64,000 nt of DNA, from assembly GCA_964187785.1 (NCBI GenBank), contig OZ076409.1, positions 47,866,001 through 47,930,000 of the forward strand, written 5' to 3'. How positions within the stretch are numbered: position 1 is the first letter of the stretch; each line of letters begins with the position of its first letter. The notes beneath the pieces are model-generated. The model worked only from the letters and a program-made list of their open reading frames with translations, made no database searches and was not told where the DNA came from. The translations under genes were made by a program, and so were the position numbers. Origin of the DNA: Amphiscolops sp. MND2022 (Eukaryota). Of this stretch, positions 19,504-54,573 are shown piece by piece.

Positions 19504-20565
19504 CACCGTTTCTGCAGCATTTGATCCCAGAAAATGTCTGATTTTTCCCTACAGTATTTTTCCCTACAGGCATCTGATTTTGCCTAAATATGAAAACTAT
19601 TGCAGTGCAGATGCACCTCTTAGATTTCAACTGGGAGAACGAATATTTGGAGGTGTATTTCGGACAGCGTATGTTGTTTTAAGCAGCTGATACTGCAATG
19701 TCCACTTTTTATCTTTTTTGCAAAAACATTGGTGGTTTTTATGGGATCAGTTTGGAAAATTGTATGGATTTGGAAAACAATGTTTGGCAAGACAAGTTTT
19801 TTTGAACATTTTTGCTCAATTCCGAAGTTTTTTGGAGCTTCTAGCTTTACGTTATTTCGTAAATAAAATTGCGTCTATTCTCCATCTTTTTGACGGCGCT
19901 TTTCAAAATACAAAAAATTCCCAAGTGTACAAAGGCAAATTGTCAATGGTGTTCTATTTTTATTCATCTTTTTCAATTGTTCATCTTCTTTATTTTGTTC
20001 AACTTCTTCCGTCACTTCATATCATCATTAGGAATATTAATTTTAGCCGGAGCCTATTTTGCCGTTTTAGCCTATTTTGACCATTTTCCGTCTATTTTAA
20101 CAAGAATTTCGCTTCCGGTTTCTGAGAAGCGTTAGATATTTCTGAGAAACGCTCAATACAAGCTATGCACAACAAGTCGCCTGATATTCTGCGTGACAGC
20201 TAATCACAGCTCGACAGCAAGCTGGCCAGTATTGTTTGTTTAACCCTTTGCACTCCGCAGATCTGCAGCTCGCTGTGCACAAAGTTTTATCAAGCTTCGA
20301 TGAGCCCGTTCCAATGTCGGAAAGTTCCAGACCTTTGCAGAATATTAGGCACGTAATAAGGTAATAATTTTTAATAAAAAGTGCAATGGCGGAAATTTAA
20401 TAGACTTTTCAGTAATTTCCTATTGCGGTTATTATTTTATATTTATTATTTAATGGCCACCACTGCTTCCAGGACTCTTCTCGACCCAAATTTCCCATTC
20501 CCGCTATTACGACGTGTGGAACGTGGTTAACTTCTGTAGTATACGTCAGCAAGCACTGGGTAAAC

Positions 20566-21132
20566 TTGAAAGGTTATCTTTCGACTATTCCCAAAGGCGA
20601 GAGTTCGGCAGCCCGAAAAGCTCTGGTCGAAATGGAAGATCCCGAATTATTGCGTAACATTGGGTTTTTGTCAACGTTTGAATTCCGTGTTCCATATGGT
20701 ACTCTTTCTGAAGGCGCGGGATTCACAACAATGAAAGCTTCGTCTCAAATTGACAAAATCACCGGGAAGTTCATTGAACCTTTGGAGACAGGAAACATAT
20801 TATCTGATCTTCTCCTCAAAAAATTTCAAGACCTGATCCAGAAAAATGAAGGACTGAGGAAAGTTGTTGAAATTGCTCGAGGAATCAACGCAGAAACTTC
20901 GGAGCCTGAAGAAATTGGTCTACTATCGTTTGCCCCATGCACGTCAGTACCCGTGGAACGACTATTTTCGGTACGTAACGCCTTTGTGAGTGACAGACCA
21001 TACCGTCTTGAAGAAACACTCAATAAATTGGTGTTTGTTAAGTACATTTCTAAGCTTTTGTACTTTTCGCCTAATTCACGTGTTTTCCCGACTATTTTCA
21101 TCCTTTTTCGCCTGAAAAAGGTGTCTATTTGA
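20566..21132 (+). pseudogene. C-terminal fragment of a hAT-like DNA transposase
   Basis: FAPCTSVPVERLFS...SDRPYRL matches the hAT C-terminal 'P.TS..VER.FS' motif; no ATG start and N-terminal part absent. Confidence 0.7.
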
Positions 21133-22411
21133 GGGATTTTCAGCCTAAAGTTATTTTTCCTATTCATCATGCAGCCAGTCATTGGGAACTATCTGGGATC
21201 AACTAGAAACATCAACAGGGCTAGAAAGTGTCGAAGCCTCCATTGAGGTTTGTCGGCACTATGCGACGTTTTCAAAACGTTTTTTAAAACTTTACCGAAT
21301 GGTCCTCCCTTCGGTTTTCACACAGTTTCAAATTCGAAAAAGTTGTTTATCGAGCATAAATTTTCACCTCTTCCGAGTATTCCGGCACTTTGTGACTTTT
21401 CCAGGAAAGTTTTTTCTCGAAATTTACTTTCTAAAATGGTAACTTTTGAAGATTTCCAGTAAAGAAACGCGTGAAAGAAAGCCTACCCAGTCGCTCTTTA
21501 GACTGTTTAGTTACCGTCGTTCAAAAATGAAACCTGTGAAAATTACAATGTTAAAACATTTATGGTGCGAATTTTGCACTCACACAATTGCCAAATACAA
21601 ACTTCTAGAAAATAGGACAGAGAATCAAAATGAAATAGATTATGAAAATCATTAAACTTGAGCCTTGAGCAAATAAAATAAACATTTGTTCATCAACATG
21701 AACTAACAATAAAGAACAAAGGACAGCAAAGTTCTTTAAAATGTATTTTTCAAAGTAGTTTGAGATATTTTTAATCAAAGAATATATAAATTCACTGCAA
21801 TGCGAATTATTATCGATACGAAAGGAAAACTGAAATTTTTGCAATGACCATATTCTTCTGGCGAATTTCTGTCAAAAATGAAGCGCTAACTTACTTTTTG
21901 TCGAAGTTTTGATAGAAACACGGTGTTAGTATCCGTGACAGGTCTTTGAAGTGAAATGATTTTAGGCAGCCAATTGTGATCTTAAGATAATAAAATTTTT
22001 GCTGCTTTTTGGTTCGAAGTGACGTCAACAAAATTGTTGAAATGTTTGCAAAGTGTGAAAAAAAGAATGTGGCCAGCTTTCAATCACATCAATTCAGTTA
22101 GATACGCTAAGTAACTACATATTTGACAGGAACTAACACTTTTATCAGCCGCCGCGGCGTATTACGTCATCGTAACAGAGGGACCAGTTAGATCTGGTTG
22201 CACTGTGATCAAGGATAAACACCTCAAGGAGTCCTGCTTACAGGGATACCGGAAGCCTCTTTCCAATGGTACTAAATCCTTATAAATGATACTTTTCAAA
22301 CTCATCGTATCATCTATTTTCAATCATCTTACCTGTGCAATCAAAGATGCGTGAACAAGTTCCACAGTAGACATAACCCATCATTGACAACTTCCTTGGC
22401 CTTTAAAACCG

Positions 22412-24378
22412 CCCGTACTGAGACTCCATTCAATCGATGGCCATTGCAACTTTTTCCGATGAGCATCGATGGCCATCGATGGGATTTGAATTTTGGCCCA
22501 GCGCATGGGGGCAGTTGTGGAGCATTTTTGGGTTAAATATATCTAATTTTAACCTACTCTCATTTCCTTTTGAGCCTGAGCAAGCTTTCTCGAGCCTGAA
22601 AATCACTTTTATCGGAGACTTGCCCTTGAATTATTTGAAAAAAAAAGAAAAACGTTGCAAAATTGCAGTTATTCGCATAATAATGCGACGGAATCGAGCT
22701 TCAATTGCTGAGAAAACCATCTGCTTGTAAGAAGAGAAAAGATCTGAAATATGCAGAAATTTGACTCTAAAAATACGTATTCATATCAAAAAATTTGGAA
22801 GTTTTTCTCTGGAAAAGCAGGAAAACCTTGCAAAATTGCAATTATGCGTATGAAAAGGCGACGGAATCAAGCTTCCATTGCTGAGAAAACCATCTGCTTG
22901 TAAGAAGAAAAAAGATCTGAAATATGCAGAAATTTGACTCTAAAAATACGTATTTATATCAAAAAATTTGGAAGTTTTTCTCTGGAAAAGCAGGAAAACC
23001 TTGCAAAATTGCAATTATGCGTATGAAAAGGCGACGGAATCAAGCTTCCATTGCTGAGAAAACCATCTGCTTGTAAGAAAACGTATCTGAAATATGCAGA
23101 AATTTGACTCTGAAAATACGTATTTATATCAAAAAATTTGGAAGTTTTTCTCTGGAAAAGCAGGAAAACCTTGCAAAATTGCAATTATGCGTATGAAAAG
23201 GCGACGGAATCAAGCTTCCATTGCTGAGAAAACCATCTGCTTGTAAGAAGAAAAAAGATCTGAAATATGCAGAAATTTGACTCTAAAAATACGTATTTAT
23301 ATCAAAAAATTTGGAAGTTTTTCTCTGGAAAAGCAGGAAAACCTTGCAAAATTGCAATTATGCGTATGAAAAGGCGACGGAATCAAGCTTCCATTGCTGA
23401 GAAAACCATCTGCTTGTAAGAAAACGTATCTGAAATATGCAGAAATTTGACTCTGAAAATACGTATTTATATCAAAAAATTTGGAAGTTTTTCTCTGGAA
23501 AAGCAGGAAAACCTTGCAAAATTGCAATTATGCGTATGAAAAGGCGACGGAATCAAGCTTCCATTGCTGAGAAAACCATCTGCTTGTAAGAAGAAAAAGA
23601 TCTGAAATATGCAGAAATTTTACTCTAAAAATACGTATTTATATCAAAAAATTTGGAAGTTTTTCTCTGGAAAAGCAGGAAAACCTTGCAAAATTGCAAT
23701 TATGCGTATGAAAACGCGACGGAATCAAGCTTCCATTGCTGAGAAAACCATCTGCTTGTAAGAAGAAAACGTATCTGAAATATGCAGATATTTGACTCGG
23801 AAAACACGTGTTTATATCAAAAAATTTGGAAGTTTTTCTATGGAAAAGCAGGAAAACCTTGCAAAATTGCAATTATGCGTATGAAAAGGCGACGGAATTG
23901 AGCTTCCATTGCAGAGAAAACCATCTGCTTGTAAGAAGAAAAATATCTGAAATATGCAGAAATTTGACTATGAAAATACGTTTTTGTATCAAAAAATTTG
24001 GGGTTTTTTTCCTAGGAAAATCAACAGAATCCGGTTTTTCACAAAGGTAAATAAAATGGATAACTATGTATAACTTCATTTCCGAATAAAATATTTGGGC
24101 ACCCTCGAAATCCCAAACAAAGTTTAAATAGACTGAATGAAAAACTTAAATGGCCAGAGTTTAGTTGAAATTTTGAACATGGCGAAGTCGAACGAATTTT
24201 TATGATGGAAAATTTTGATTCCCATCGATGGGTCATTGATGGTCCATCGATGACCCGTCGATGGGATGATCGTTGGAAAAACCTCATCGATGCCCATCGA
24301 TGGAACATTGATGGCCATCGATGGGCCCCATGGGACTGCGATGGCCATCGATAAACTGCGATGGGATCTCAGTACGGG
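22412..24378. mobile_element. Non-autonomous TIR element (CACTA/EnSpm-like) with an internal satellite array
   Basis: TIRs CCCGTACTGAGA / TCTCAGTACGGG with CG on both flanks (possible 2-bp TSD); clustered (C)ATCGATG(G) subterminal motifs at 22433-22483 and 24222-24352. Confidence 0.8.
22640..24010. repeat. Tandem array of ~8 monomers of ~169-174 bp with a 343-bp dimeric higher-order period
   Basis: Monomers alternate AAGAAGAAAAAAGATCTG and AAGAAAACGTATCTG; identical ORFs at 22954 and 23297 are 343 bp apart. Confidence 0.95.
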
Positions 24379-25290
24379 CGTCCAAAAATAAATTGAACTC
24401 CGAGTTTGCCATTGCGACAGCAAGGGACTTTGACCTTTCGAAAGTCAAAACTTAAACTTAAAGTAATAAGTATACCGAAGGAAACTAGTTGGGGAATCCA
24501 AAGATTTCACCCGAATGCATGAAAGCTGAAATTATTGCAGATTTATTTGTTTGTCGAATTTGATTGTGGAACTTTTGCGGACTACAAGATTTTGTTGACT
24601 AAATTATGTTCACCCGAGTCAGTATATAGGGTCATCCTTGGTTCATCAGCATAACATGAAAAAAATGGTTGCTAACGCTTTCGGGGAAAGTCGTCAGTCA
24701 TCAAGCAGACAAATTTGTAAACTTTGTAGTTGTGTTTTGAACAAATGAACAATTAGATTGTGATAATGAATCGAAACAGCTCTGGAACGTTTCAATTCAG
24801 GGTACAGCGAGACAATACCTGATAACAGGTACGAATGAAGAAAGGTATACCAATGGCAAACCAAATTAGGGGTTCGAAATAACTTCAAGGCCTGCTATTG
24901 CATAATAAAGCACAAACGTGTCAACGAAAAGCGCTAGAGAGCGTCGTATATCCACTCGCGCTGACAGAGCGTTTCTATATTCACCGAAGATAGTCAGAGC
25001 GTTTCTATTGCCACCTTGCGTAATCATGTACAGTTGAAAATTAAATTGCGACAATAGTATTTTTGTATGACCCAATCACAATGAAATAATAACCCAAACC
25101 CATAATAGATCTGAAACGCCAACCTTTTGAAGTAAAAGTACCCCAAAGGCGGTCCAGTGACCCCTTAAGGTTGCTTAGGTCTTTTGCCTTTTAGGAGTAT
25201 CTTCTGGCGGTTTTTCCTCTTTCGTCTTGTTTTGGCAGGCAAGAAACGCTTTGCCGAGGTATTTTGTTAGTCTCTTCTTCAAGCGTCTCA

Positions 25291-25353
<63 letters not shown>
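25291..25353 (+). repeat. (CAT)21 microsatellite, left boundary of YR unit 1
   Basis: Read directly. Confidence 0.98.
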
Positions 25354-25647
25354 GATGATCAGATACGCTCCAGGACCCAGGAAACTCCAAAAGGGGGGTC
25401 AGGCAGTCTCTCTGGCAATTTTAGTCGGGGGTTGGAAAGTATTTTAGAAATTTTTTCTTTTTTTCAAATGGTACAATTTTTTCGATAATCGTTATTGAAT
25501 CGCGAAGCAATAAAAAACTTTTCGGCATAGTTTTCAGTTCGATTCATTCACGGTTTAAAAAAATCTTTTTTAGAATATAGACTCGCTTCAACTGTTTTGA
25601 GTGAATATAGAGACGTTTCAACAGTAGGGAAGATAATAATATGCTTG

Positions 25648-25888
25648 CTGACGTAATATCACGTGACTTAAATTCTCTTATTTTATTAGCGTAAGAACCA
25701 ATCAGAATCGCTCAAGCTTACTTTTCTCATCGCTGCAGGTAATTTGTACGCACTCTCGCATAATAAGCGGTCGTATAATCGTTGTCAAAGTGAATGTGAT
25801 TTGAAAGTAAACACGGCAGAGACGCGCTGTCAACTATTTGCACCTTTTATCTAATTTCATGTGAAATTTCAAAATCTTGTATTTTCAG
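25648..25888 (+). promoter_or_regulatory. Putative Pol II promoter and 5' UTR intron of the YR gene (repeated in unit 2, ~29042-29282)
   Basis: TGACGTAA, TCACGTGA and AACCAATCAG motifs; CAG|GTAATT donor at 25739 and TTTTCAG acceptor at 25888, five bases before ACC-ATG (25894). Confidence 0.5.
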
Positions 25889-25893
25889 ACACC

Positions 25894-28035
25894 ATGTCAC
25901 AAGCTGATACGTCCTTCGATTGTATTTCCAACCTCACAGAAATTGCCGGATTGGCGTATTCTCCGAGTACAAACGCTCTTGTGAACAGAACTTGTATGGA
26001 TATCATGGAGTCTGTCAACGCATGTTCAAGCCGAATTTTGGATGATTCTGATATGCCTACGCAAGCTCAGTCGCCCAATGAGATAGTTTCTGAACCAAGG
26101 GAACCAAGTGATTCAAATGAGCCACAAACAACGACGCGCCGAGGCAGACAATTGCAGCGAAACCAATTGCAAGGCAAACGGCCCAAACAACCACAGGTAA
26201 AACAGTGTGTACTTTGCCTTACAAAAGTGGCGAACCTGAGACAGCATTTCTCCAAGAGCCATAATCTCACAACCCAACAACGAAAATTCTTGCTATCTTT
26301 TTATGCTACAAGGATTTGTGTGTCTACAGTGTACCAATGCAACGGCTGCTTCATAAGGTTCACTGGAAAGAAGAAACACAAAAAAAATTGCAGAAAGCAT
26401 GAAATTATCAAAGTAAACCCCAAATCTATGGACGAATTCCCCTCACACTTCCGCTTTGACATTCCTGGTATACGGGGAAAAACTTTCAACCACCATAAAC
26501 TGCTCGACGAGTATGATGAGAACCGGAACGAGGCCGGTGATGAAAACATGACCCGCTTCCAGAAGACTTTTTTGGCTCAAATTCTTAGTGGAACGTCCTT
26601 TTTGAGGAAACCCGAGGCTGTCAAGTCAACATTTTATCGAATCAAGTCAGAAAAAAACTACACGTTCCAAACAATGCGGAAATTAATGTTTGAATTCAAT
26701 CGTTTTCTCGAGTTTTGCAACTCCTACAAACAAAAAGAATTGAGATTCAACATGGCTTTGTTCAAAGGAGAGGTCAGAAACCTGCTGAAAAAGACTGCAA
26801 AGGAGGCTTCGAAAGAGGTTAATCGGCGTATGCAAGCCAGGTTCGATTCGGTGCCAAATTTGTACCAAGTTAGCCATCTTCGTCAAATGGTTAAAGAAAT
26901 GCTGGGTCAGAACGTCTACAGCTCGTTCACTTACCTCGAGTATTTATGCCTTTTGGTGTTTGTAATCCATTCAGAATCGAACTGCAAAATCGGTGCATTG
27001 CTGAACTTGACCTTTGAGGACTATAAAGTCATGCAAGAGAAGAAGGTTATGACTTCATTCGAGCACAAAACTGGGGCGAAGTTTCCCAATTTCATACGGA
27101 TAACAAAAGAGAATAGAAAATGGGTAGATGACCTTCATCAATACTTCCAGGAAGAAAACAATGGTCTGACGCCTAAGCTCGCTTTTCCATCCAACACCAA
27201 CAAGAAGTTCACCTGCCAAGCCAAATATTTCAAGGAGGCCATATACAAATACTTTCGAATTGACGACAAGCTGTATAACCCCGACAATGTTAGAAAAGCA
27301 TGGGATACCTTCTTCGAGAAGTCTCAGTTTGTCACAGGTCAAAATGCCCTGCTATACCAGATGAACACTGGCCATTGTGAGGCTACACGTCGAAAATACT
27401 ACCTGAAACCGGCGACCGATAATGAAATTGAAAGCTTCTTAGATGAGCAATTGAAGATAATTGATGACCCCGAAAGCTGCTACGTGGCCGAAGACGATCC
27501 CCCGCCCCCACCACCAGTTGAGCAAGAGGACAATCCTGAACAGCACGAAAGTGAAGAAGAAACTATGGACACAGGAAACGTTGGTGATACACAGGAAGAA
27601 AACGTCGACGGAGGCGCTCTGACACCTGACAATGAAGACGCCAACAACAACTCATTGGTGATTGACGAGGATGACATGTGTGAAGATGATGCTCCAACAC
27701 CAATCCCTAGCGACCAAGACGATGAAGATTATAAGCCCGATCCAGGGGTAAAGGTCAAATGGGAAACAGAAAGAACATTGAAAACTAGAGAAAACGATGC
27801 GACAAAATGGGAAGCTATAGGTGAAAAACTGATGAAATTCAAAGGACCTGCAGATCCCGTGCAACCATTTCTCGAGGAACTGTTTACCAAAGTTGTTGCT
27901 GCTCAGTTCTACACAGGTCGGGGCCAACTCAGAGACCTGTGCAAGCTGATGAAGCTCAGTAATGCTGATCGTGAGAAGGTACTTGATAAGGCTACTAAAA
28001 AGCTTTCAAATGTAATGAAAAACACGAAAAACTGA
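25894..28035 (+). CDS. Zn-finger plus tyrosine-recombinase-fold protein, 713 aa from the first ATG; first catalytic Arg position is Lys in this copy
   Basis: CVLC..HFSKSH and CNGC..HKKNC Zn-finger-like motifs; SNC(K)IGALLNL box I, EHKTG, PDNVRK and TGHCEATRRKYY box II appear in canonical R-K-(H)xxR-H-Y order; acidic C-terminal linker. Confidence 0.85.
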   Translation: MSQADTSFDCISNLTEIAGLAYSPSTNALVNRTCMDIMESVNACSSRILDDSDMPTQAQSPNEIVSEPREPSDSNEPQTTTRRGRQLQRNQLQGKRPKQPQVKQCVLCLTKVANLRQHFSKSHNLTTQQRKFLLSFYATRICVSTVYQCNGCFIRFTGKKKHKKNCRKHEIIKVNPKSMDEFPSHFRFDIPGIRGKTFNHHKLLDEYDENRNEAGDENMTRFQKTFLAQILSGTSFLRKPEAVKSTFYRIKSEKNYTFQTMRKLMFEFNRFLEFCNSYKQKELRFNMALFKGEVRNLLKKTAKEASKEVNRRMQARFDSVPNLYQVSHLRQMVKEMLGQNVYSSFTYLEYLCLLVFVIHSESNCKIGALLNLTFEDYKVMQEKKVMTSFEHKTGAKFPNFIRITKENRKWVDDLHQYFQEENNGLTPKLAFPSNTNKKFTCQAKYFKEAIYKYFRIDDKLYNPDNVRKAWDTFFEKSQFVTGQNALLYQMNTGHCEATRRKYYLKPATDNEIESFLDEQLKIIDDPESCYVAEDDPPPPPPVEQEDNPEQHESEEETMDTGNVGDTQEENVDGGALTPDNEDANNNSLVIDEDDMCEDDAPTPIPSDQDDEDYKPDPGVKVKWETERTLKTRENDATKWEAIGEKLMKFKGPADPVQPFLEELFTKVVAAQFYTGRGQLRDLCKLMKLSNADREKVLDKATKKLSNVMKNTKN

Positions 28036-28666
28036 ATTGATTTGAGTTTGTGACATTGTATTTATCCCTGTTACTTTGTTTCTTTTGGCAACTTAGCCAG
28101 TACTTGTTGTTTGAATGCTTTGAGTTCATGATATGTTACCTTGATATGTAACTTGAGTTTTAACCAGAACGTCTCTATTTACCAAAGTGGGTTGAAGGTT
28201 ATCTGATAGTCTTCCTTGAAAGTATGAAACGTCTCTATATGCACATCAATGGACCTTTAAAGTAGTCGTTGAAAACATTTTATCAGTTGGAAATACGGTG
28301 AGACTGGAAGAAAATAATCATAAGAAGGTTAAAAAAACTTGAAAGAGGTCAAAAGTTGAATTCTAATTGAACGCCTCTGAACCCGTAATTGTCACTCATG
28401 TTAGTATCAAAAAGTATCTATATTCTCATTTTGACATAGACAAAATAAAATTTCTAGATTTTCTAATTCCTGCAATGATAGGACTCCAGCCCACCGGCAT
28501 GAAATTCTTGACATTTCCCCCAAACTAAGGCGTGCTCAACATTCCACTTTCTATCTTTTGGGAGACTCCAGAAGGGCAAAAAAATCAAAGCGTTTCTGTA
28601 TAATCACAAAAAGGGGTCAGGGGTGCCTAATATTGTCTGGAATTTTGACAGAGCGTCTCCGATAAA

Positions 28667-28741
<75 letters not shown>

Positions 28742-28747
28742 TATCAT
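28667..28747 (+). repeat. (CAT)25-TAT-CAT microsatellite at the junction of the two YR units
   Basis: Read directly. Confidence 0.98.
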
Positions 28748-31700
28748 GATGATCAGATACGCTCCAGCACCCAGGAAACTCCAAAGGGGGGGTCAGACAG
28801 TCTCTCTGGCAATTTTAGTCGGGGGTTGGAAAGTATTTTAGAAATTTTTTCTTTTTTTGAAATGGTACAATTTTTTCGATATTCGTTATTGAATCGCGAA
28901 GCAATATAAAACTTTTCGGCATAGTTTTCAGTTCGATTCATTCACGGTTTTAAAAAATCTTTTTTAGAATATAGACTCGCTTCAACTGTTTTGAGTGAAT
29001 ATAGAGACGTTTCAACAGTAGGGAAGATAATAATATGCTTGCTGACGTAATATCACGTGACTTAAATTCTCTTATTTTATTAGCGTAAGAACCAATCAGA
29101 ATCGCTCAAGCTTACTTTTCTCATCGCTGCAGGTAATTTGTACGCACTCTCGCATAATAAGCGGTCATATAATCGTTGTCAAAGTGAATGTGATTTGAAA
29201 GTAAACACGGCAGAGACGCGCTGTCAACTATTTGCACCTTTTATCTAATTTCATGTGAAATTTCAAAATCTTGTATTTTCAGACACCATGTCACAAGCTG
29301 ATACGTCCTTCGATTGTATTTCCAACCTCACAGAAATTGCCGGATTGGCGTATTCTCCGAGTACAAACGCTCTTGTGAACAGAACTTGTATGGATATCAT
29401 GGAGTCAGTCAACGCATGTTCAAGCCGAATTTTGGATGATTCTGATATGCCTACGCAAGCTCAGTCGCCCAATGAGATAGTTTCTGAACCAAGGGAACCA
29501 AGTAATTCAAATGAGCCACAAACAACGACGCGCCGAGGCAGACAATTGCAGCGAAACCAATTGCAAGGCAAACGGCCCAAACAACCACTGGTAAAACAGT
29601 GTGTACTTTGCCTTACAAAAGTGGCGAATCTGAGACAGCATTTCTCCAAGAGCCATAATCTCACAACCCAACAACGAAAATTCTTGCCATCTTTTTATGC
29701 TACAAGGACTTGTGTGTCTACAGTGTACCAATGCAACGGCTGCTTCATAAGGTTCACTGGAAAGAAGAAACACAAAAAAATTGCAGAAAGCATGAAATTA
29801 TCAAAGTAAACCCCAAATCTATGGACGAATTCCCCTCACACTTCCGCTTTGACATTCCTGGTATACGGGGAAAAACTTTCAACCACCATAAACTGCTCGA
29901 CGAGTATGATGAGAACCGGAACGAGGCCGGTGATGAAAACATGACCCGCTTCCAGAAGACTTTTTTGGCTCAAATTCTTAGTGGAACGTCCTTTTTGAGG
30001 AAACCCGAGGCTGTCAAGTCAACATTTTATCGAATCAAGTCAGAAAAAAACTACACGTTCCAAACAATGCGGAAATTAATGTTTGAATTCAATCGTTTTC
30101 TCGAGTTTTGCAACTCCTACAAACAAAAAGAATTGAGATTCAACATGGCTTTGTTCAAAGGAGAGGTCAGAAACCTGCTGAAAAAGACTGCAAAGGAGGC
30201 TTCGAAAGAGGTTAATCGGCGTATGCAAGCCAGGTTCGATTCGGTGCCAAATTTGTACCAAGTTAGCCATCTTCGTCAAATGGTTAAAGAAATGCTGGGT
30301 CAGAACGTCTACAGCTCGTTCACTTACCTCGAGTATTTATGCCTTTTGGTGTTTGTAATCCATTCAGAATCGAACTGCAGAATCGGTGCATTGCTGAACT
30401 TGAACTTTGAGGACTATAAAGTCATGCAAGAGAAGAAGGTTATGACTTCATTCGAGCACAAAACTGGGGCGAAGTTTCCCAATTTTATACGGATAACAAA
30501 AGAGAATAGAAAATGGGTAGATGACCTTCATCAATACTTCCAGGAAGAAAACAATGGTCTGACGCCTAAGCTCGCTTTTCCGTCCAACACCAACAAGAAG
30601 TTCACCTGCCAAGCCAAATATTTCGAGGAGGCCATATACAAATACTTTCGAATTGACGACAAGCTGTATAACCCCGACAATGTTCGAAAAGCATGGGATA
30701 CCTTCTTCGAGAAGTCTCAGTTTGTCACAGGTCAAAATGCCCTGCTATACCAGATGAACACTGGCCATTGTGAGGCTACACGTCGAAAATACTACCTGAA
30801 ACCGGCGACCGATAATGAAATTGAAAGCTTCTTAGATGAGCAATTGAAGATAATTGATGACCCCGGAAGCTGCTACGTGGCCGAAGACGATCCCCCGCCC
30901 CCACCACCAGTTGAGCAAGAGGACAATCCTGAACAGCACGAAAGTGAAGAAGAAACTATGGACACGGGAAACGTTGGTGATACACAGGAAGAAAACGTCG
31001 ACGGAGGCGCTCTGACACCTGACAAAGAAGACGCCAACAACAACTCATTGGTGATTGACGAGGATGACATGTGTGAAGATGATGCTCCAACACCAATCCC
31101 TAGCGACCAAGACGATGAAGATTATAAGCCCGATCCAGGGGTAAAGGTCAAATGGGAAACAGAAAGAACATTGAAAACTAGAGAAAACGATGCGACAAAA
31201 TGGGAAGCTATAGGTGAAAAACTGATGAAATTCAAAGGACCTGCAGATCCCCTGCAACCATTTCTCGAGGAACTGTTTACCAAAGTTGTTGCTGCTCAGT
31301 TCTACACAGGTCGGGGCCAACTCAGAGACCTGTGCAAGCTGATGAAGCTCAGTAATGCTGATCGTGAGAAGGTACTTGATAAGGCTACTAAAAAGCTTTC
31401 AAATGTAATGAAAAACACGAAAAACTGATTTGATTTGAGTTTGTGACATTGTATTTATCCCTGTTACTTTGTTTCTTTTGGCAACTTAGCCAGTACTTGT
31501 TGTTTGAATGCTTTGAGTTCATGATATGTTACCTTGATATGTAACTTGAGTTTTAACCAGAACGTCTCTATTTACCAAAGTGGGTTGAAGGTTATCTGAT
31601 AGTATTCCTTGAAAGTATGAAACGTCTCTATATGCACATCAATGGACCTTTAAAGTAGTCGTTGAAAACATTTTATCAGTTGGAAATACGGTGAGACTGG

Positions 31701-32058
31701 AAGAAAATAATCATAAGAAGGTTAAAAAAACTTGAAAGGTATCAAAAGTTGAATTCTAATTAAACGCCTCTGAACCCGTAATTGTCACTCATGTTAGTAT
31801 CAAAAAGCATCTATATTCTCATTTTGACATGAACAAAATAAAATTTCTAGATTTTCTAATTCCTGCAATAATAGGACTCCAGCCCACCGGCATAAAATTC
31901 TTGACGTTTCCCCCAAACTAAGGCGTGCTCAACATTCCACTTTCTATCTTTTGGGAGACTCCAGAAGGGCAAAAAAATCAAAGCGTTTCTGTATAATCAC
32001 AAAAAGGGGTCAGAGTGCCTAATATTGTCTGAAATTTTGACAGAGCGTCTCCGATAAA
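28748..32058 (+). mobile_element. Tyrosine-recombinase DNA element (Crypton-like), unit 2
   Basis: Direct repeat of unit 1 at offset 3394; followed by (CAT)5(CAA)3(CAT)2 at 32059-32088. Confidence 0.8.
29288..31428 (+). pseudogene. Second YR gene copy, frameshifted in an A-run (A7 at 29774-29780 vs A8 in copy 1); catalytic Arg intact
   Basis: ORFs 29255-29809 and 29710-31428 together reproduce copy 1; SNCRIGALLNL with AGA at 30379-30381. Confidence 0.8.
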
Positions 32059-32089
32059 CATCATCATCATCATCAACAACAACATCATA

Positions 32090-33910
32090 TCAAATTTGAT
32101 TTTGAAAGCACCGAGATGACTTTGCTCCGACAAAAGCTGCAAAATCAGGTTCACTCAAACGCTAAGCATGTCCATTGTGGAATCACATAGGATTGCACAA
32201 AATATTTCCTGTTGAAATGGTTTAGAGGTTCTTATATTCAGATGGCTGCGCTTCAGAATGCTCTTCGCTTGAGAGGCCTAATTTGTTGCTTTTTGAACTG
32301 CTCAAGTTACAGAGTACTATTTATGTGGATCCCCAGCACCTTGATCGCTGGAGGGAATTCGACGTGCAAGTAATTTAGCCTGCGGACAGGGGTGTGCTCT
32401 GCAGATTTGTTCTATGTTTTGCGGAAATTTTTTGCTTTGGTTTTGTCGATTGATGCCGTGAATCTTTCAGTGAATACATCTTCCACATTATCCCGTCAAA
32501 CCACACGCTGTCGAAAGCTATCTCCAATTCCACCGAAAGTACAACCGGAATTTGGCTTGAGGCCCAAGCAAGTTGGATAATGTTAAAAAGGTCAGTATTG
32601 TATCTAGCTGTTGGTTTGCGTTTCCGGAAAACTTCTTGGAACGGGTCGTCCATGCCGTTACAATTCATATAATGCGATATTTCATTCTTCCAAATCCGTT
32701 CAAGGAGTTTAGCAACGTAAGATGATTTGGTAATGGGGTGATAGCTGCTTGTTTCAAAATACAACTCTTTCCATGATTTAAAAAACAACTTCATTGTTTC
32801 TGAGCGGCCAACTGCTTTTTACGAGTTTCATTGAACAAGGGAATGAGGAATTCTTCAAGGTTCGGGCTCATTTGTTCAAGCACAGCTGTATGGATTCCGT
32901 AAGGATCTCCAGATTTATCACTGGGATTCACTTCCTTTGAGAAGTTTTCTTTAGAAATCGTATTCAGTTATTTCGTCATAATTTTGCACTCTATCCTCTG
33001 CACGGTAAGTGAGGTCAACGTGCTGCGTTACATGCTCATAAAAAGTTTCATTGAAAGTCTCAGTTTTCTGATGGGTTCCTGAGAAGTTCTTGAAAAAATT
33101 ATCGGAACGCTTTTTGTCATCCGTAACTAGTAGGCCATTGCCGATAAGGACTTCTATCTGGGAACTTGAGTGTTGAGTGAAAATTTTCTTGTAACTTGTG
33201 GAGACCGTTTGGTTAGTTTCTATTTCCAACCAATTGTGGTTGACGTTTTGCAGCTCAAAGTTGAAGATTTCTTGATTTGGCTGAGCTTGTTGTTGTTTAC
33301 GGGGTCCGTAAGTTTATTGGTAAGTTTTTGGATCCTTCTCAGCTCGTACGAAATCTGTGTCAGCGTCGGGTTCCAGTATGCTTTCGGCATACACCAAATT
33401 TCGTGAAAATTCAACACGTGAAGCCTGCGATCGAGAAGAAAGACGCTAAATTCGCCTTTTCAGCTTCTTTTACCGACTTACGCAATGTGGAGTGTCTGAA
33501 ATTTAGTTAGATATATAATCTGTGCTTCGCGCAAAAATGATTAGGTTTTTCTAAAGTCGCCAAAATGTAAAAATCCTACAATGCCGCACGATCATCCAGG
33601 TCAGCAGTCAAGTTTTAGAGCTGCTAACGGTGAACATCAATGGGCTAACTGAACCAAGTCGTGTTTAATTAGATTCTTACATCTCAAAAAAAAACAGGAA
33701 TTCCGCCTTGTCTCGTCGGGTGGGCACTTCTGTTATTGTGATATGTAGGTAATAATTCGTCTTTCGTTGTTTCAGTAACTGCTGTGAAGCTAACTTTGTT
33801 TTTTTTGAGATGTAAGAATCTAATAAAACACGACTTGGTTCAGTTAGCCCATTGATGTTCACCGTTAGCAGCTTAAAACTTGACTGCTGACCTGGATCAT
33901 CGTGCGGCAT
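32090..33910 (-). pseudogene. Decayed LINE ORF2 (endonuclease start plus RT), related to the copy at 46108-48260
   Basis: SFKLLTVNINGL (APE endonuclease N-terminus), SSYHPITKSS, ELEIAFDSVW; co-linear with ORF 47020-48171. Confidence 0.85.
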
Positions 33911-35795: not shown

Positions 35796-36663
35796 ATGGA
35801 GCAAGACGCAAAACGTGAGCTGCTTGAGTTTGCGATGCAGGCCGTTGGAGGAGCAGTGAATGGCAATCAGAATCGAATCTTCAATTGCGGAACCATTCGA
35901 CCGGATAGGTTTCCTTCGAGTTCGTTTGCCGATTGGGTTCAATGGAAGACCCACTTTATCGCAGTGGCAGAAGCGAAAAGGTGGACAGACCCAGAGGCTA
36001 TCGGTGCACTGCCAGTGTGTTTGAGTGGACTAGCCTTGGAAGAGTTTCAAGCAGCACCCCGGGAACTGAAGACGCAGGTAGTGAATCGACGGGCGCCTAC
36101 TTTACGAGCACGCACTCTTTGAGCACTTGGACCAAGTGATGGGAGTCACAAGGAACAATAGAGCAGGGCGCAACGAATTCCAAAGTTTGTTTCAGAAGGA
36201 GAGCGAACCCTTGAAGGAGTTTGCACGTCGCGTTCGCAAATGGGGTCTGCTGGTCTTTGGTCATCAGGAAGCAGATCAGCGAGACGAATTGTTCCGTGAA
36301 CGTTTTTTAGAAGGACTATCAGATTCAGACCTGCTAGAAGTTTTGCTACGAGAACGAACGCGTGGATTTGTTGGTACTGTGGATCGAGCGGTGGAGTTGG
36401 AAACTATTGCCAACTCAGCAAGAACTAGGCCGAGGAGACGAGTTGCTTCGGTCAGGCTTGCACAGGAGCCAGCTGTTGCGGCTGAAGATCAAACTGCAGT
36501 GACGGAGATGAAGCAGCAGTTGAATGAAATGACTAGGGTATTGGGCAGTCTGACGAATATGGTTGGCCAATTTGTTTCTACAGTGGTCAGTGCCCGTCGA
36601 TGCGATGTGTGCGGCGAAGATGGTCACCTGCAGAAGTTTGTCGCCTCATCAGGAATCCTTTAA
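35796..36663 (+). pseudogene. Retrotransposon gag, frameshifted near 36120
   Basis: DWVQWKTHFIAVAEAKRWTD...LSGLALEEF; FQSLFQKESEPLKEFARRV; FLEGL; terminal CDVCGEDGH knuckle. Confidence 0.8.
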
Positions 36664-37453
36664 ACTTGTGAGGGCCGGGAGACCGTCACAAGATAAAGTT
36701 TTCTCGGCCGCACCAGAAGCTACGCTATCGCAACAGCAATCAGAAGACATTGTGAAAGCGGCAGCGTCAAGGATAGCTACACGAAAAGTTCGCCAAGTAT
36801 GTACCAGTGAGATTCTCCGAGATGAACAGATGAGAGTGGAAAAGGTAGGGGAGGCGCGTGAGGTAACACCCAGCAACAGCAGTGCTCAGCAGGCGGACAC
36901 CATTGGGTTGAAAATGGACCGACTCCGAACGGTTCGTGAGGTGACAAAGACGCATGGGCGAGAGTCTGACAGCACTTTAGAAGATGTATCGAAGCTGGGA
37001 AGCTCCTCTAGAGAGGTTTTGAACATTGCCGACACAGCTGCCGACAGATTTGGGGTTAGCCTCGCAAGCCCTATTGTTGTTCCTCGGTCCCAACTGGGTG
37101 GCATTAATCCAGAAGGGAAGCATGTGCACCAGGTAGCTGTGATGACGTGTACTCCATTGACTGACGACTTTAACTTGCTTGTTCGAAGTCGAGAGAGAAT
37201 GGTTGAAGATTTAAACTGGGAAAAAGGGCAGTTGGCAGAGGTAATGGTCGTCGAAAACCACCATCAGAGACTAATGGAGGAGCGTTGGAATCCCGCAACT
37301 GTCGCAGTGAAAGACGTAGACCATGCAATGCTCGATGAGATTTTGAGAGAAATGGAAGAGCTTGATGAATCCCATAAACTGTCCGATGAAGACGAAACAA
37401 TCATCGATGCTCTATTGGACGAACTGGAACTTGAAAACGCAGACCAAGAGTGA
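36563..37453 (+). CDS. ORF of unknown function overlapping the gag end inside the LTR element
   Basis: 296 open codons with an acidic C-terminus; no protease or RT motif recognised. Confidence 0.4.
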   Translation: MANLFLQWSVPVDAMCAAKMVTCRSLSPHQESFKLVRAGRPSQDKVFSAAPEATLSQQQSEDIVKAAASRIATRKVRQVCTSEILRDEQMRVEKVGEAREVTPSNSSAQQADTIGLKMDRLRTVREVTKTHGRESDSTLEDVSKLGSSSREVLNIADTAADRFGVSLASPIVVPRSQLGGINPEGKHVHQVAVMTCTPLTDDFNLLVRSRERMVEDLNWEKGQLAEVMVVENHHQRLMEERWNPATVAVKDVDHAMLDEILREMEELDESHKLSDEDETIIDALLDELELENADQE

Positions 37454-38475
37454 GGCGAACGGTCTGAATTTCTTGACGTGGGAGAAGTCCCTGTACCCTG
37501 CACTGGCGTGTACAAAGTGTCAGCTGAGTGTACTTGTGATGTCACCAAGGCAACTGTCAGATCAGAGACGGACATCGAACCAGAAGGGAAGTCCTCCTTC
37601 CAGAGTACCGAAGTGGATTGCAGTCATGACCGACACTACTGCCAGATCCCAGAGGAAGTTATCCCCCAACACTCAGCTCTTACCCACAGGAAGCAATTCT
37701 GGGTACCCCACAGGAAGCATTGTAGGCGCAAAACAGAAAATCAGCAGATGGGCTTGCGTTGGCTGTGCTGGCCGACCCACCGAAAGCATGGCAGGTGGAA
37801 ACCCGACAAAATAGTGATGCCACCGCTGCCAGTGCAGCCGAGACCGGATGGGACCCGACGCTGGGACCCGAAGGAAGAGATCAAGGTGGAAGTCTGTAAA
37901 TCGATGAAGTGTCCGATGAGGCGATACGCTGCTGCGATGTATGTGAAACCCCATCCACCGAACACTTAAGTATCCATTTCAACAAAACTGATTTTTTATC
38001 ATTAAGTTTTTAAATTATTCACTTTCGTGAAGTTAGTAAACTTCTTGTTGTCCAGGCAAATCGAGGTTCCGCCGACCGTAGTTTTTTTTGCAAGACGATG
38101 AAATTGTATGTAATTTTTTTGATGAGTAACATTTCAGAGGCTGAACTTCGAGGAGCCCAATTCGTGTGTTTATATTCACTTCAATGTATCAAGACCCAAC
38201 CCTGACCCAAACAGATTACATTTATGAAAGCGCCTATGAACATGCCCAGACCCCCTCTCTCGCGACCCTACCCTAGTGCTTCTCTCCTTGTTGTTCTGTA
38301 GAAGCGATAAATAACCCCAACCAATCCAAACTTATCCTCGACCATGTAAATTAGGACCGGTAGGACCACTCCCTTGCGCATTGCCGAAAAGAAAGATGGT
38401 ATAAATTATTTTTACTGGGTTAAAAAGGGATGAAGCAATAAATGATTAAATTAGAATGAAAATGATCGTTTTTAT

Positions 38476-46107: not shown

Positions 46108-48260
46108 TTAAAGTCGTTTCGCTGCCTCTACAAATCTAACTGCGTTTTTCCAGTCTTCTTCTTTGTTGTTGTCAACTAAATTTTGTATTGATTTAGGCTG
46201 CCAGAGTTCTCTCAAATTTTCATGAAAAGGGCAAACTTTTAAGAAATGGTCTGCAGTTTCATCTTCTATCATACATGTACATAATGGGGTGAAACACCGG
46301 CCAATTTTAAATTTGAAGAATCCAAGATGACTTTGTTCTGACAGCAGCTGCACCATCTTGTTCATTTGCGATTTCCCCAACCATTTCGGTAGCATTTCTT
46401 TTTCGTGAACTCTCAATACCAAATTTTCAATTGGGTTACTGCTTAATCTAACGTTCCACCGCTTTCTGATTTCGTTTGTCATTGTTTCAGGGTTGTAGGT
46501 ATCAAGTTGGCCAAGTATTCTTCTGTCTGCATTTACTTTTTTTGCAATTTGACTCGTATTTAACATTAGGAGAGAACGAATGGGGTCACTGTCTTGTTGT
46601 TGCATCGCTTTTGTGCAAAACTTCGCTGCGTGCGATTCTAATTGAATGTCTATTGGGACGAGATTTGCAAGCAGTTCTAGCAATCTTTTTGGGGATTCCA
46701 AGTTTTGCAAGTTATTAGTGCTATCATTTCGGACCACAGTGTTGAGTTTTGGAACTTGAGTTTGTCTCCCCACAGAAAAGCAAGATATGTCCACTGTGGG
46801 ATAACAATCGATTGGCACAACTTTTTCATTGTATGTGGTTTAAAACTTTGAACATTTAGATAGCTTCGTTTTAAAATACCCAGGGTTTGCGCGGCTTTGT
46901 TGGTAGAGTTCTCAAACTGTTCTTTGAAACACAAATGCCTGTCGATGAGTATACCCAACACCTTTATCGTTGAAGGGAAATCGACTTTGGAACCATTTAG
47001 CTCCAGGACAGGAACAGTTTCAATTTTTTGTCTGTTTGATTTCTGGAATATAATAGCTTTTCTCAGCAGATGCTTTAATATGCCATTTCTTCATCCACCA
47101 GACTGATTTATCAATATCCCGTTGAAGACACTCGACAGAATTTGAGAGTGTGTCACTTACAGCCAGCAAAGTGAGATCGTCAGCATATTTGAAATCTTCA
47201 CTTAGACAGTCCTTACAAAGGTTCATGACGAAAATTGTAAATAGGATTGGTGATATTACTGAACCTTGGGGAATGCCCACACTTGACTTGTACTCGTTGC
47301 TACAGTAATTATTCACTTTGATTTTGAATTTTCGTCGGTATAGGAAATCTTTAATCAAACACCAGATTTTTCCACTGATACCGAGAGAATAAAGTTTCCA
47401 CAAAAGCCCGTCGACCCACACACTGTCGAATGCTTTCTCCAAATCCACTGTAACTGCAACTGGATTTTGGTTTGAGGCCCACGCAAGTTGAATGTTATTT
47501 ATTAGGTCAGTTATATATCTAGCTGTTGATTTCCGCTTCCGGAACCCTTCTTGACGTACGTCGTCCAGATCATTTGAATGCAGATAGTGCATGATTCTAT
47601 TTTTCAGTATTCTTTCAAGTAGTTCCCCAACGTAAGAAGATTTAGTTATAGGGCGATAGCTACTAGTTTTAAGGTATGAGTCTTTCCCAGATTTTGGTAT
47701 GAATATAACTACATTGTTTCCGAATGGCCAAATACTGCTTTCAAAAACTTTGTTGATCAGGATAAGGAGGAGATCTTTAACGCTTGGGCCCAAACGTTTC
47801 AGCACAGCTGGATGAATTCCATCCGGATCTTCAGTCTTTGAACTTGGGTTTACTTCCTTCAGAGCTGTTTCCAGCTCGTATTCCGATATTTCGTCAAAAT
47901 TTTGCTGCATTTGCTCAGAACTAGAAATGAAAGCAACTTGCTGGGTTACATGTTGATAGAAATTCTCATCGAAGTTTTCAGGTGTGAGATGGGTTCCTGA
48001 GAAGAAGTCCCTGAAGAGCATATCTGCTCGATCTTTGTCATCCGTCACTAGTGTCCCATTGTTCAAAAGAACTCCGAGTTGAGAGTTCGAGTGCTTACTG
48101 AAGAACTTTTTATACTTTTTCCAGAAGGTTTGACCAGTGTTGTAATTCAAAGCTTCAGTTTCTTTTTCCAACCAGTTTGATTTGGCGTTTTGTAACTCGG
48201 TTAAAGAGTTCCTTAACTTGTCCGAGCTTGGTCAAGTTAATAGGATCTGAACGTTTCCTA
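46108..48260 (-). pseudogene. LINE ORF2 (RT plus C-terminal CCHC), 5'-truncated, with frameshifts
   Basis: PDGIHP, SSYRPIT, QEGFRK, DLEKAFDSV, GIPQGSVISPILF, KYADDL, then CTCMIEDETADHFLKVC. Confidence 0.92.
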
Positions 48261-48486
48261 GTGAGTTTATGGAATATGACAGTCCAGAAAACGAGACGAA
48301 GTTTATTTGGAAATTTGGTACTATTGTCCATGAAGTCTACAGTTAGTTAGGTCAATGGATGATGACAATTTGGGGTTCGTCCAACATGCCCAAAATTTTG
48401 GGTTGAAGTCAAAATTTCTAATAATTTCCTCAAGTCAATATTTCGACACGAATTTCCACAATTCACTTCGAAATGATGTTTTAAAA

Positions 48487-53862: not shown

Positions 53863-54189
53863 TGGTTTTTTATTTCAGTTTTAGATCTTATTCCGTTTTT
53901 TTTTCATTTTAGATCATTCAAATTATCAAAAAATAGTATTCCATTAATGCTACATTTGACTTTAATGGGGGTTGATCTGGTGGAATCGGGATCCATCATC
54001 ATGTAATAGTGTGAGTTGAAAAAGTGATCATTAACTTTGGTTTGTTTGAGCTCATCAATGTTTTTTATCATTCCAATTTTCAGTTTTCTTGCCTTCTAAT
54101 TTCATCATTCGCAAAATAGGAGCCTGCCAGTTTGTTGAAACGTAACAGCGGGCAATTGAATTAGATATTTTTCAGATTTTGTTCATACA

Positions 54190-54573
54190 ATGGAACAATC
54201 GGAGGAGATAGACACATCGGGCAACACGTTTGTAATTCGGCCCAACTACCAACACAAGTTCAGACCTGTCACAGTGAGAGCCCTCGTGAACAAAATTTTG
54301 TCTCAGAACTTATCCGACAAATCTTACAACGCCGAAGAAGTGCCTGATCTCACTCGCTCCTTGACTGAACAGATCAAAGAGGAAGTGAAATCTTTGGGCT
54401 ATGACCGCTATAGGATAATAGTACAGGTCGCCATAGGAGAGCAGAAAGGGGAGGGTGTTAAAATGGGTTGCAGGTGCTTCTGGGACCCCGATACTGACAA
54501 CTACGCCCAAGAATTATTCATGAATGAGTCATTATTTTGTGTCGCCGCAGTCTTTGGACTTTTTTATTACTAA
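54190..54573 (+). CDS. DYNLT2B: Tctex1-domain dynein light chain (TCTEX1D2/DYNLT2B-like), intronless CDS
   Basis: NTFVIRP...KFRP, GYDRYRIIVQVAIGEQKGEGVKMGCRCFWDPDTDNYA, MNESLFCVAAVFG signature. Confidence 0.9.
   Translation: MEQSEEIDTSGNTFVIRPNYQHKFRPVTVRALVNKILSQNLSDKSYNAEEVPDLTRSLTEQIKEEVKSLGYDRYRIIVQVAIGEQKGEGVKMGCRCFWDPDTDNYAQELFMNESLFCVAAVFGLFYY

Follow-up and report, generated by a model that had tools for sequence, protein, structure and literature searches.

The closest described counterparts of the element reported here are Cryptons, DNA transposons in which a tyrosine recombinase (YR) is the sole mobility enzyme. A single sentence in the accessible portion of PMC8869645 states that some CryptonV families are microsatellite-specific, citing a Repbase report on cnidarians; it bears out what a preliminary description of the present locus had said of that group. 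We describe a microsatellite-associated YR element from Amphiscolops sp. MND2022, where two 3.3-kb units stand in tandem between (CAT)n tracts within a stretch of 64,000 nucleotides, hereafter the window (assembly GCA_964187785.1, contig OZ076409.1, positions 47,866,001 to 47,930,000, forward strand). We read it, with a probability of roughly 0.7, as an autonomous YR-only DNA transposon that moves as a circle, carries an attachment site with inverted arms, targets (CAT)n and builds arrays by repeated independent insertion. Its copies and relatives display near-strict (CAT)n flanks of one polarity, fixed termini, mixed-family arrays, imperfect inverted repeats and a parallel (AAT)n niche. The source cited for CryptonV is reportedly the 2012 Repbase Reports of Kapitonov and Jurka.

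Like CryptonV as characterised in that portion of PMC8869645, the Amphiscolops element is a YR-encoding DNA transposon with microsatellite-specific insertion. Mixed arrays, inverted ends, a split between (CAT)n and (AAT)n, and zinc fingers go unmentioned in the accessible portions of PMC8869645, PMC4455052 and PMC5753468, the latter two merely listing CryptonV by name; Repbase entries may hold them. In our literature search neither mixed-family arrays nor such an end structure turned up as described; Repbase Reports and a 2020 review, both outside the search, may record them. Microsatellite-specific YR transposons are known from a brief database report, and the accessible papers offer no mechanism for them. 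Judged by description rather than by sequence comparison, the element is, in our judgement, more likely than not a CryptonV or near kin. It is functionally like a microsatellite-specific Crypton, a target strategy already in print, and what is added here is an anatomy and a testable model.

Other systems are more distant. Cryptons A, F, I and S, as outlined in the accessible part of PMC3212892 (Kojima and Jurka 2011), resemble the present element in having a YR as sole mobility enzyme, no reverse transcriptase (RT), a proposed circle, a short repeated crossover core and non-autonomous derivatives. As defined there, Cryptons have no terminal inverted repeats, whereas seven of our eight elements have imperfect inverted ends. 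The same source ties CryptonA to DUF3504, a domain absent from the Pfam matches of 24 proteins at E 0.1. CryptonF differs in GCR1_C, which was not found in the window protein or the 24 proteins scanned, and the active CryptonF-1_cRei has a 5-bp core and targets CAYCG, not a microsatellite (PMC9977147, accessible part). DIRS/Ngaro retrotransposons carry RT and RNase H with split or inverted long terminal repeats, and no unit here has an RT or RNase H open reading frame (ORF). Endogenous nimavirus YRs with C2H2 and SAM-like domains insert into the telomere repeat (TAACC)n, according to the accessible portion of PMC10871703. Compared by description, they share with our element the pairing of a YR with zinc-binding domains (zinc-finger-like motifs here), a simple-repeat target, possible concatemers or episomes, and integrase-defined niches; they are, however, carried in viral genomes of 280-580 kb and target a pentanucleotide, whereas the present units are stand-alone and 3.3 kb long. 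No nimaviral protein stood among the 50 viral fold matches listed.

(CAT)n flanks and mixed-family arrays

The preliminary description had recognised two near-identical units separated and bounded by (CAT)n, and this arrangement holds. The two units, members of what we call family A, are 98.8% identical, with 38 substitutions and two one-base gaps over 3313 alignment columns. The features of the locus are as follows.

24667..25290, plus strand: what is left of the right end of a diverged C-like element, whose gene would be on the minus strand; first array member, from sequence matches
25291..25353, plus strand: (CAT)21, left junction tract
25354..28666, plus strand: unit 1, family A, young subfamily, 3313 bp, about 0.45% from its closest dispersed copy
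25354..25374, plus strand: left terminal inverted repeat arm GATGATCAGATACGCTC, putative recombinase half-site (12/20 match to the reverse complement of the right end, null 0.037)
25660..25702, plus strand: what we take to be a CACGTG box and a CCAAT box, candidate RNA polymerase II promoter, conserved in the metagenomic relative L111
25894..28035, plus strand: YR ORF of unit 1, 713 amino acids (aa), from ORF, homologues and fold
26206..26391, plus strand: zinc-finger-like motifs C105-C108-H118-H123 and C149-C152-H162-C166, from homologue conservation and a weak profile match
26482..27435, plus strand: YR core, approximately residues 197-514, from fold match range and conservation
28647..28666, minus strand: right terminal inverted repeat arm (GAGCGTCTCCGATAAA read on the plus strand)
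28667..28747, plus strand: (CAT)25-TAT-CAT, middle junction tract, 27 triplets
28748..32058, plus strand: unit 2, family A, slightly older subfamily, 3311 bp, ORF split into 29288-29809 and 29731-31428
32059..32088, plus strand: (CAT)5(CAA)3(CAT)2, right junction tract

The window array has three members, since its left flank is a C-like remnant and not unique host DNA. Over about 490 bp this remnant has 70-73% nucleotide identity to family C ends, its last 50 bp also match, and it terminates in AAGCGTCTCA just ahead of (CAT)21. A search for its possible left end near 22095 gave no match.

End searches across the 1.07-Gb assembly gave at least 40 and at least 41 matches, and family A comprises at least 40 copies. 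Of the 41 left ends in the fetched stretches, 39 adjoin (CAT)3 or longer, as do 43 of the 45 matches to the right-end motif; the polarity is always the same, and (ATG)n adjoins none of these ends. Perfect runs of at least 11 CAT units number only 503 in the assembly (7159 minus 6656 matches), so these flanks are not a product of chance, and the earlier proposal of (CAT)n targeting gains a genome-wide footing. A control pattern, (TAC)11, had 148,686 matches over the whole assembly, against 7,159 for (CAT)11.

Two copies, L032 on C8 and L036 on C2, are identical over 3310 bases and have different flanks. The 713-aa ORF is present in 14 of the 37 copies aligned, 13 of which keep the full catalytic set, and several copies have a common internal deletion. 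By these comparisons, family A is evidently young, multicopy and recently mobile. Repeat-bounded tandems can be mis-assembled, and the locus might also have been a domesticated host gene. However, the window units differ at 40 columns and each is close to different dispersed copies, the same anatomy recurs in an independent assembly (L111), and the dispersed copies, at least 40 in number and each with its own flanks, speak against a single-copy, domesticated locus. We regard either explanation as exceedingly improbable.

By hand count, 23 of the 33 family A loci are arrays (22 of mixed families), nine are solo and one is unclear. Beside A copies there often lie other elements that carry the same kind of gene and are about 3.3 kb long; they belong to families B, C, D, E and at least one more, with core identities of 29% (B), 55% (C), 26% (D) and 62% (E). 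Family B also occurs as a 2.4-kb deletion form, the family C gene is reversed relative to the repeat, and every unit in families A-I has a single ORF. The (CAT)n repeat adjoins 41/41 left and 34/34 right ends of B, 11/11 left ends of C, and 6/6 left and 1/1 right ends of D; the right-end motif of C was too loose (14/70) to be used as a count. The left end of family B has 157 exact matches. The first 100 listed group into 32 clusters, of which the largest spans 44.7 kb and holds 14 copies. The extents of long arrays were taken from coordinates, with base-level reading for fetched stretches.

When aligned copies are ranked by pairwise distance, each window unit comes only 20th or 19th of 36 on the other's list. 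Not being each other's nearest copies, they appear to have inserted separately and not as a dimer; seven of eight adjacent A-A pairs likewise are not mutual nearest neighbours, and A tandems seem mostly to have arisen by separate insertions. Of the two origins initially suggested for the window tandem, a second integration into the regenerated repeat is thus favoured over a dimeric circle. Dimeric circles, local duplication or unequal exchange by the host between tracts might still have produced arrays in place of repeated targeting, and some loci fit: L026 holds two deletion derivatives (A′-A′) with five differences (0.21%), L052 repeats a chimeric unit, and C2 has a near-duplicate array at 53-kb spacing (L065/L066). 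As the sole cause of arrays, these processes are refuted by the ranks of the window units, by arrays that combine, in no constant order, families with protein identities of 26-62%, and by solo copies that are also flanked on both sides, and we consider such an origin very unlikely. At L052 (222-3129), the tandem chimeric units join 295 bp of an A left end to a C body and right end, pointing to end swapping between families.

A further possibility is that the elements make microsatellites more than they use them. The true target would then be a short site of the ATGAT/ATCAT type, in many cases where an element already in place has its left junction, with long tracts brought by the circle or expanded after insertion. 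In accordance with this, the intact copy at L029 has no upstream (CAT)n and (CAT)3 downstream, with only ATGAT duplicated; 374 of the 503 CAT runs are preceded by T, like the right ends of B, C and D; and at L034 23 and 21 CAT units lie within a CTT(CAT)4 compound repeat. Most long tracts are also element-associated. In a sample of tracts with A, C or G as the preceding base (the first 30 matches, 26 distinct), 19 adjoin an element end (18 by BLAST, one by end motif) and seven are free. Yet free tracts of 13 to more than 100 units exist, long enough for the observed flanks, and short sites are vastly commoner, while just two of 41 left ends are without a tract. Short-site targeting seems to us unlikely, and it would be compatible with (CAT)n targeting rather than exclusive of it. 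Long (CAT)n tracts 7 kb apart at L158 and L160 have common flanks unrelated to the tested YR families, and may represent another (CAT)n-carrying repeat or a segmental duplication.

The recombinase

The 713-aa protein comprises, in order, two Cys/His zinc-finger-like motifs, a helical core-binding domain, a catalytic domain, an acidic linker and a conserved C-terminal helical tail. A search of 1.84 billion representatives yielded 111 relatives, of which 23 were aligned with the window protein and 65 were aligned for folding. The resulting model has a predicted local distance difference test score (pLDDT) of 91.2 and a predicted template modelling score of 0.73; a single-sequence prediction (pLDDT 38) was discarded. 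The top structural matches in the PDB are all YRs, namely XerA, XerH, Cre, Tn1549 Int and lambda Int, with Z of 10-12.6. The XerA match has Z 12.6 and a root-mean-square deviation (rmsd) of 12.9 over 245 aligned residues, and the Cre match Z 11.3 and rmsd 5.6 over 260. Viral structural matches were viral integrases and VLF-1. In the predicted model, the conserved catalytic residues sit on the expected secondary-structure elements, and the protein is modelled with a YR fold comprising core-binding and catalytic parts, as the preliminary description had claimed.

YRs follow a characteristic spacing between catalytic histidine and tyrosine. The element's enzyme has an H-to-Y spacing of 9, as well as the R...K...xxR...H...Y order and core-binding plus catalytic fold of lambda Int, Tn1549 Int, XerA and Cre; it differs from these at 8-17% identity, in belonging to a eukaryotic element, and in its N-terminal zinc fingers and microsatellite target. 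The catalytic set comprises K365 (R in other copies), K392 (within HKTG), D464-x-x-R467, H494 and Y503. Among 24 aligned homologues, R365, K392, R467 (N/D-x-x-R), H494, Y503 and the two Cys/His fingers are conserved, the Arg at 365 nearly invariantly. The R/K difference noted earlier falls at the catalytic Arg position. The R/K, K, R, H and Y positions proposed earlier are conserved; the histidine of HxxR is replaced by D or N, and unit 1 has K365.

Sequence profiles were less informative. Neither a Pfam scan nor a PDB sequence search with the window protein gave a YR match. A Phage_integrase match was found in one of 24 homologues, a weak Phage_int_SAM_1 match in five of 24 proteins, and Ros/C2H2-like fingers in three of 24. 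The zinc-finger-like motifs match Ros and C2H2 profiles weakly (E 0.017-1.4) and are conserved in full-length homologues. None of the relatives found had a name informative on class, and 130 pattern matches in viral contigs included no relatives. Language-model neighbours, a lead only, are eukaryotic clusters without names, with Chordata, Arthropoda and Cnidaria the commonest phyla.

Each unit has one gene and neither has a second long ORF, in keeping with the proposed YR-only element. Both window copies are probably now dead. Residue 365 is Lys in unit 1 and Arg in unit 2 and every other 713-aa copy. In unit 2 the reading frame is broken where an A-run near 29773 has lost 1 bp. These crippled copies had been overlooked in the preliminary description, as had the inverted ends, the distant families sharing tracts and the (AAT)n sister families. 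An A8 run in the second zinc finger (26373-26380) is a frameshift hotspot, with 16 A8, three A7 and one A9 among 20 copies matched. L111 loses its frame at the matching place (about 1133-1141). The hotspot may reflect mutation, sequencing error or a slippage site. Upstream of the gene, the CACGTG/CCAAT boxes are retained in L111 and the adjacent bases have diverged. A TTTCAG acceptor-like motif lies directly 5′ of the start codon in A (window 25884-25896), L111 (640-650) and family B. A candidate donor further upstream lacks conservation, and the motif could reflect an intron in the 5′ untranslated region or trans-splicing.

Ends, (AAT)n relatives and a proposed mechanism

The protein search (150 of 676 candidates scored, 20 stretches fetched from more distant matches) recovered three families, G, H and I (L091-L107), with core identities of 29-32%, which occupy (AAT)n with one polarity and in mixed arrays. 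The (AAT)n repeat flanks 8/9 and 8/9 ends of G, 10/10 and 10/10 of H, and 2/2 and 1/1 of I, and (CAT)n was found at none of the ends counted. Family H has many equal-scoring copies with open 748-aa frames. A protein tree built from 37 rows has (A,C,E), (B,D), (H,I) and G emerging from one fork and gives no order for the target switches. The metagenome contig L111, an independent assembly and the one relative among 84 searched, holds a complete element between (CAT)n tracts with 82% aa identity in the core. Its ratio of nonsynonymous to synonymous divergence (dN/dS) is about 0.04, with dS saturated, and its end motifs are altered at both ends in the same box.

Either (CAT)n or (AAT)n stands at both element ends, with ATGAT repeated at L029. 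Terminal inverted repeats are imperfect, with 12-17 of 20 matches, and seven of eight elements have a null of 0.0005-0.037 in an element-only scan, preferred because a phase test that includes tract letters is biased to in-phase. For A, L111, B, D and G, and by hand reading for H and I, the inverted arms keep phase with the repeat's AT. Such a register would place 3k+1 bases of spacer between the two arms. A AGAGACGC-like terminal box recurs inside both ends, above shuffles in six of eight elements.

We propose that the element exits as a circle whose joined ends would form the attachment site, consisting of an inverted arm, a short spacer in (CAT) phase and 3k+1 bases long (7 bp for k=2), and a second inverted arm. 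Known YR sites have a 6-8 bp spacer according to the accessible part of PMC3212892, to which this predicted site may be likened. The recombinase would bring the attachment site into synapsis with a (CAT)n tract in the chromosome. This tract could replace both half-sites, since the pattern AT[CG] is common to (CAT)n and its complement. More generally, (CAT)n and (AAT)n are both ATN, self-complementary at two of three positions, and a plain tract could mimic two inverted half-sites. Polarity would be set by the asymmetric spacer, and specificity and polarity together by the third repeat position and the spacer. The AGAGACGC-like boxes are candidate accessory sites, perhaps for the zinc fingers. 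Each insertion would split one tract into two, adding one target, so that arrays would grow by independent insertion of any family reading the same repeat. Intact copies elsewhere may supply enzyme, and an increase in copy number would need a replicative step.

Several points weigh against this account. We infer circle exit and enzyme supply from assembled sequence. The histidine of HxxR is D or N family-wide, unlike the textbook tetrad, and Foldseek E-values are modest, 3.5e-4 at best. The inverted repeat of family B is not significant (null 0.11), that of family C is one base out of repeat phase, and subterminal box enrichment is not significant in G or I. The L026 pair fits local duplication, and the L029 site implies that a long tract is not required. 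The empty-site search gave no empty allele: the left flank of L029 is single copy, and the flank part of the L034 query, which also covered the element's right end, matched only itself.

Neighbouring features and significance

Elsewhere in the window, 22410-24381 has inverted ends rich in CATCGATGG that enclose 7.9 tandem copies of a 173-bp repeat (22649-24008), and resembles a non-autonomous element with an internal satellite. Decayed pieces of non-LTR (non-long terminal repeat) retrotransposons lie on the minus strand at 32091-33332 and 46108-48273, with RT-like and RNase-H-like frames by eye, one of them beginning directly after the last (CAT) tract. A gag-like frame with a CCHC-type motif and further frames occupy 36085-37969, which we take to be probably an LTR retrotransposon remnant. 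An intronless ORF at 54160-54573 presumably resembles a Tctex1-domain dynein light chain, and a frame at 20416-21132 has a CTSVPVERLFS motif that we assume to be like the hAT transposase dimerisation region.

It is conceivable, though doubtful, that these families form a distinct clade apart from CryptonV. Such a clade would read the degenerate palindrome (ATN)n, have one guild for (CAT)n and another for (AAT)n, build multi-family arrays from a kilobase to 45 kb by adding targets, generate most of the long (CAT)n tracts here, and be active now. If so, it would offer a compact integrase whose repeat specificity could be mapped by comparing sister families. At least eight to nine such families occur together in this genome; identical copies lie on different chromosomes, some enzymes are intact, the ends are defined and the target repeats are two. 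The circle intermediate, the crossover point, the recognition of a non-palindromic repeat and the switch from CAT to AAT are now directly testable. An integrase encoded by one gene, aimed at a defined repeat and avoiding double-strand breaks, could provide a lead for genome engineering. For the elements themselves, mixed arrays would represent unrelated transposons that share and multiply one target niche, tying transposition to the birth of microsatellites.

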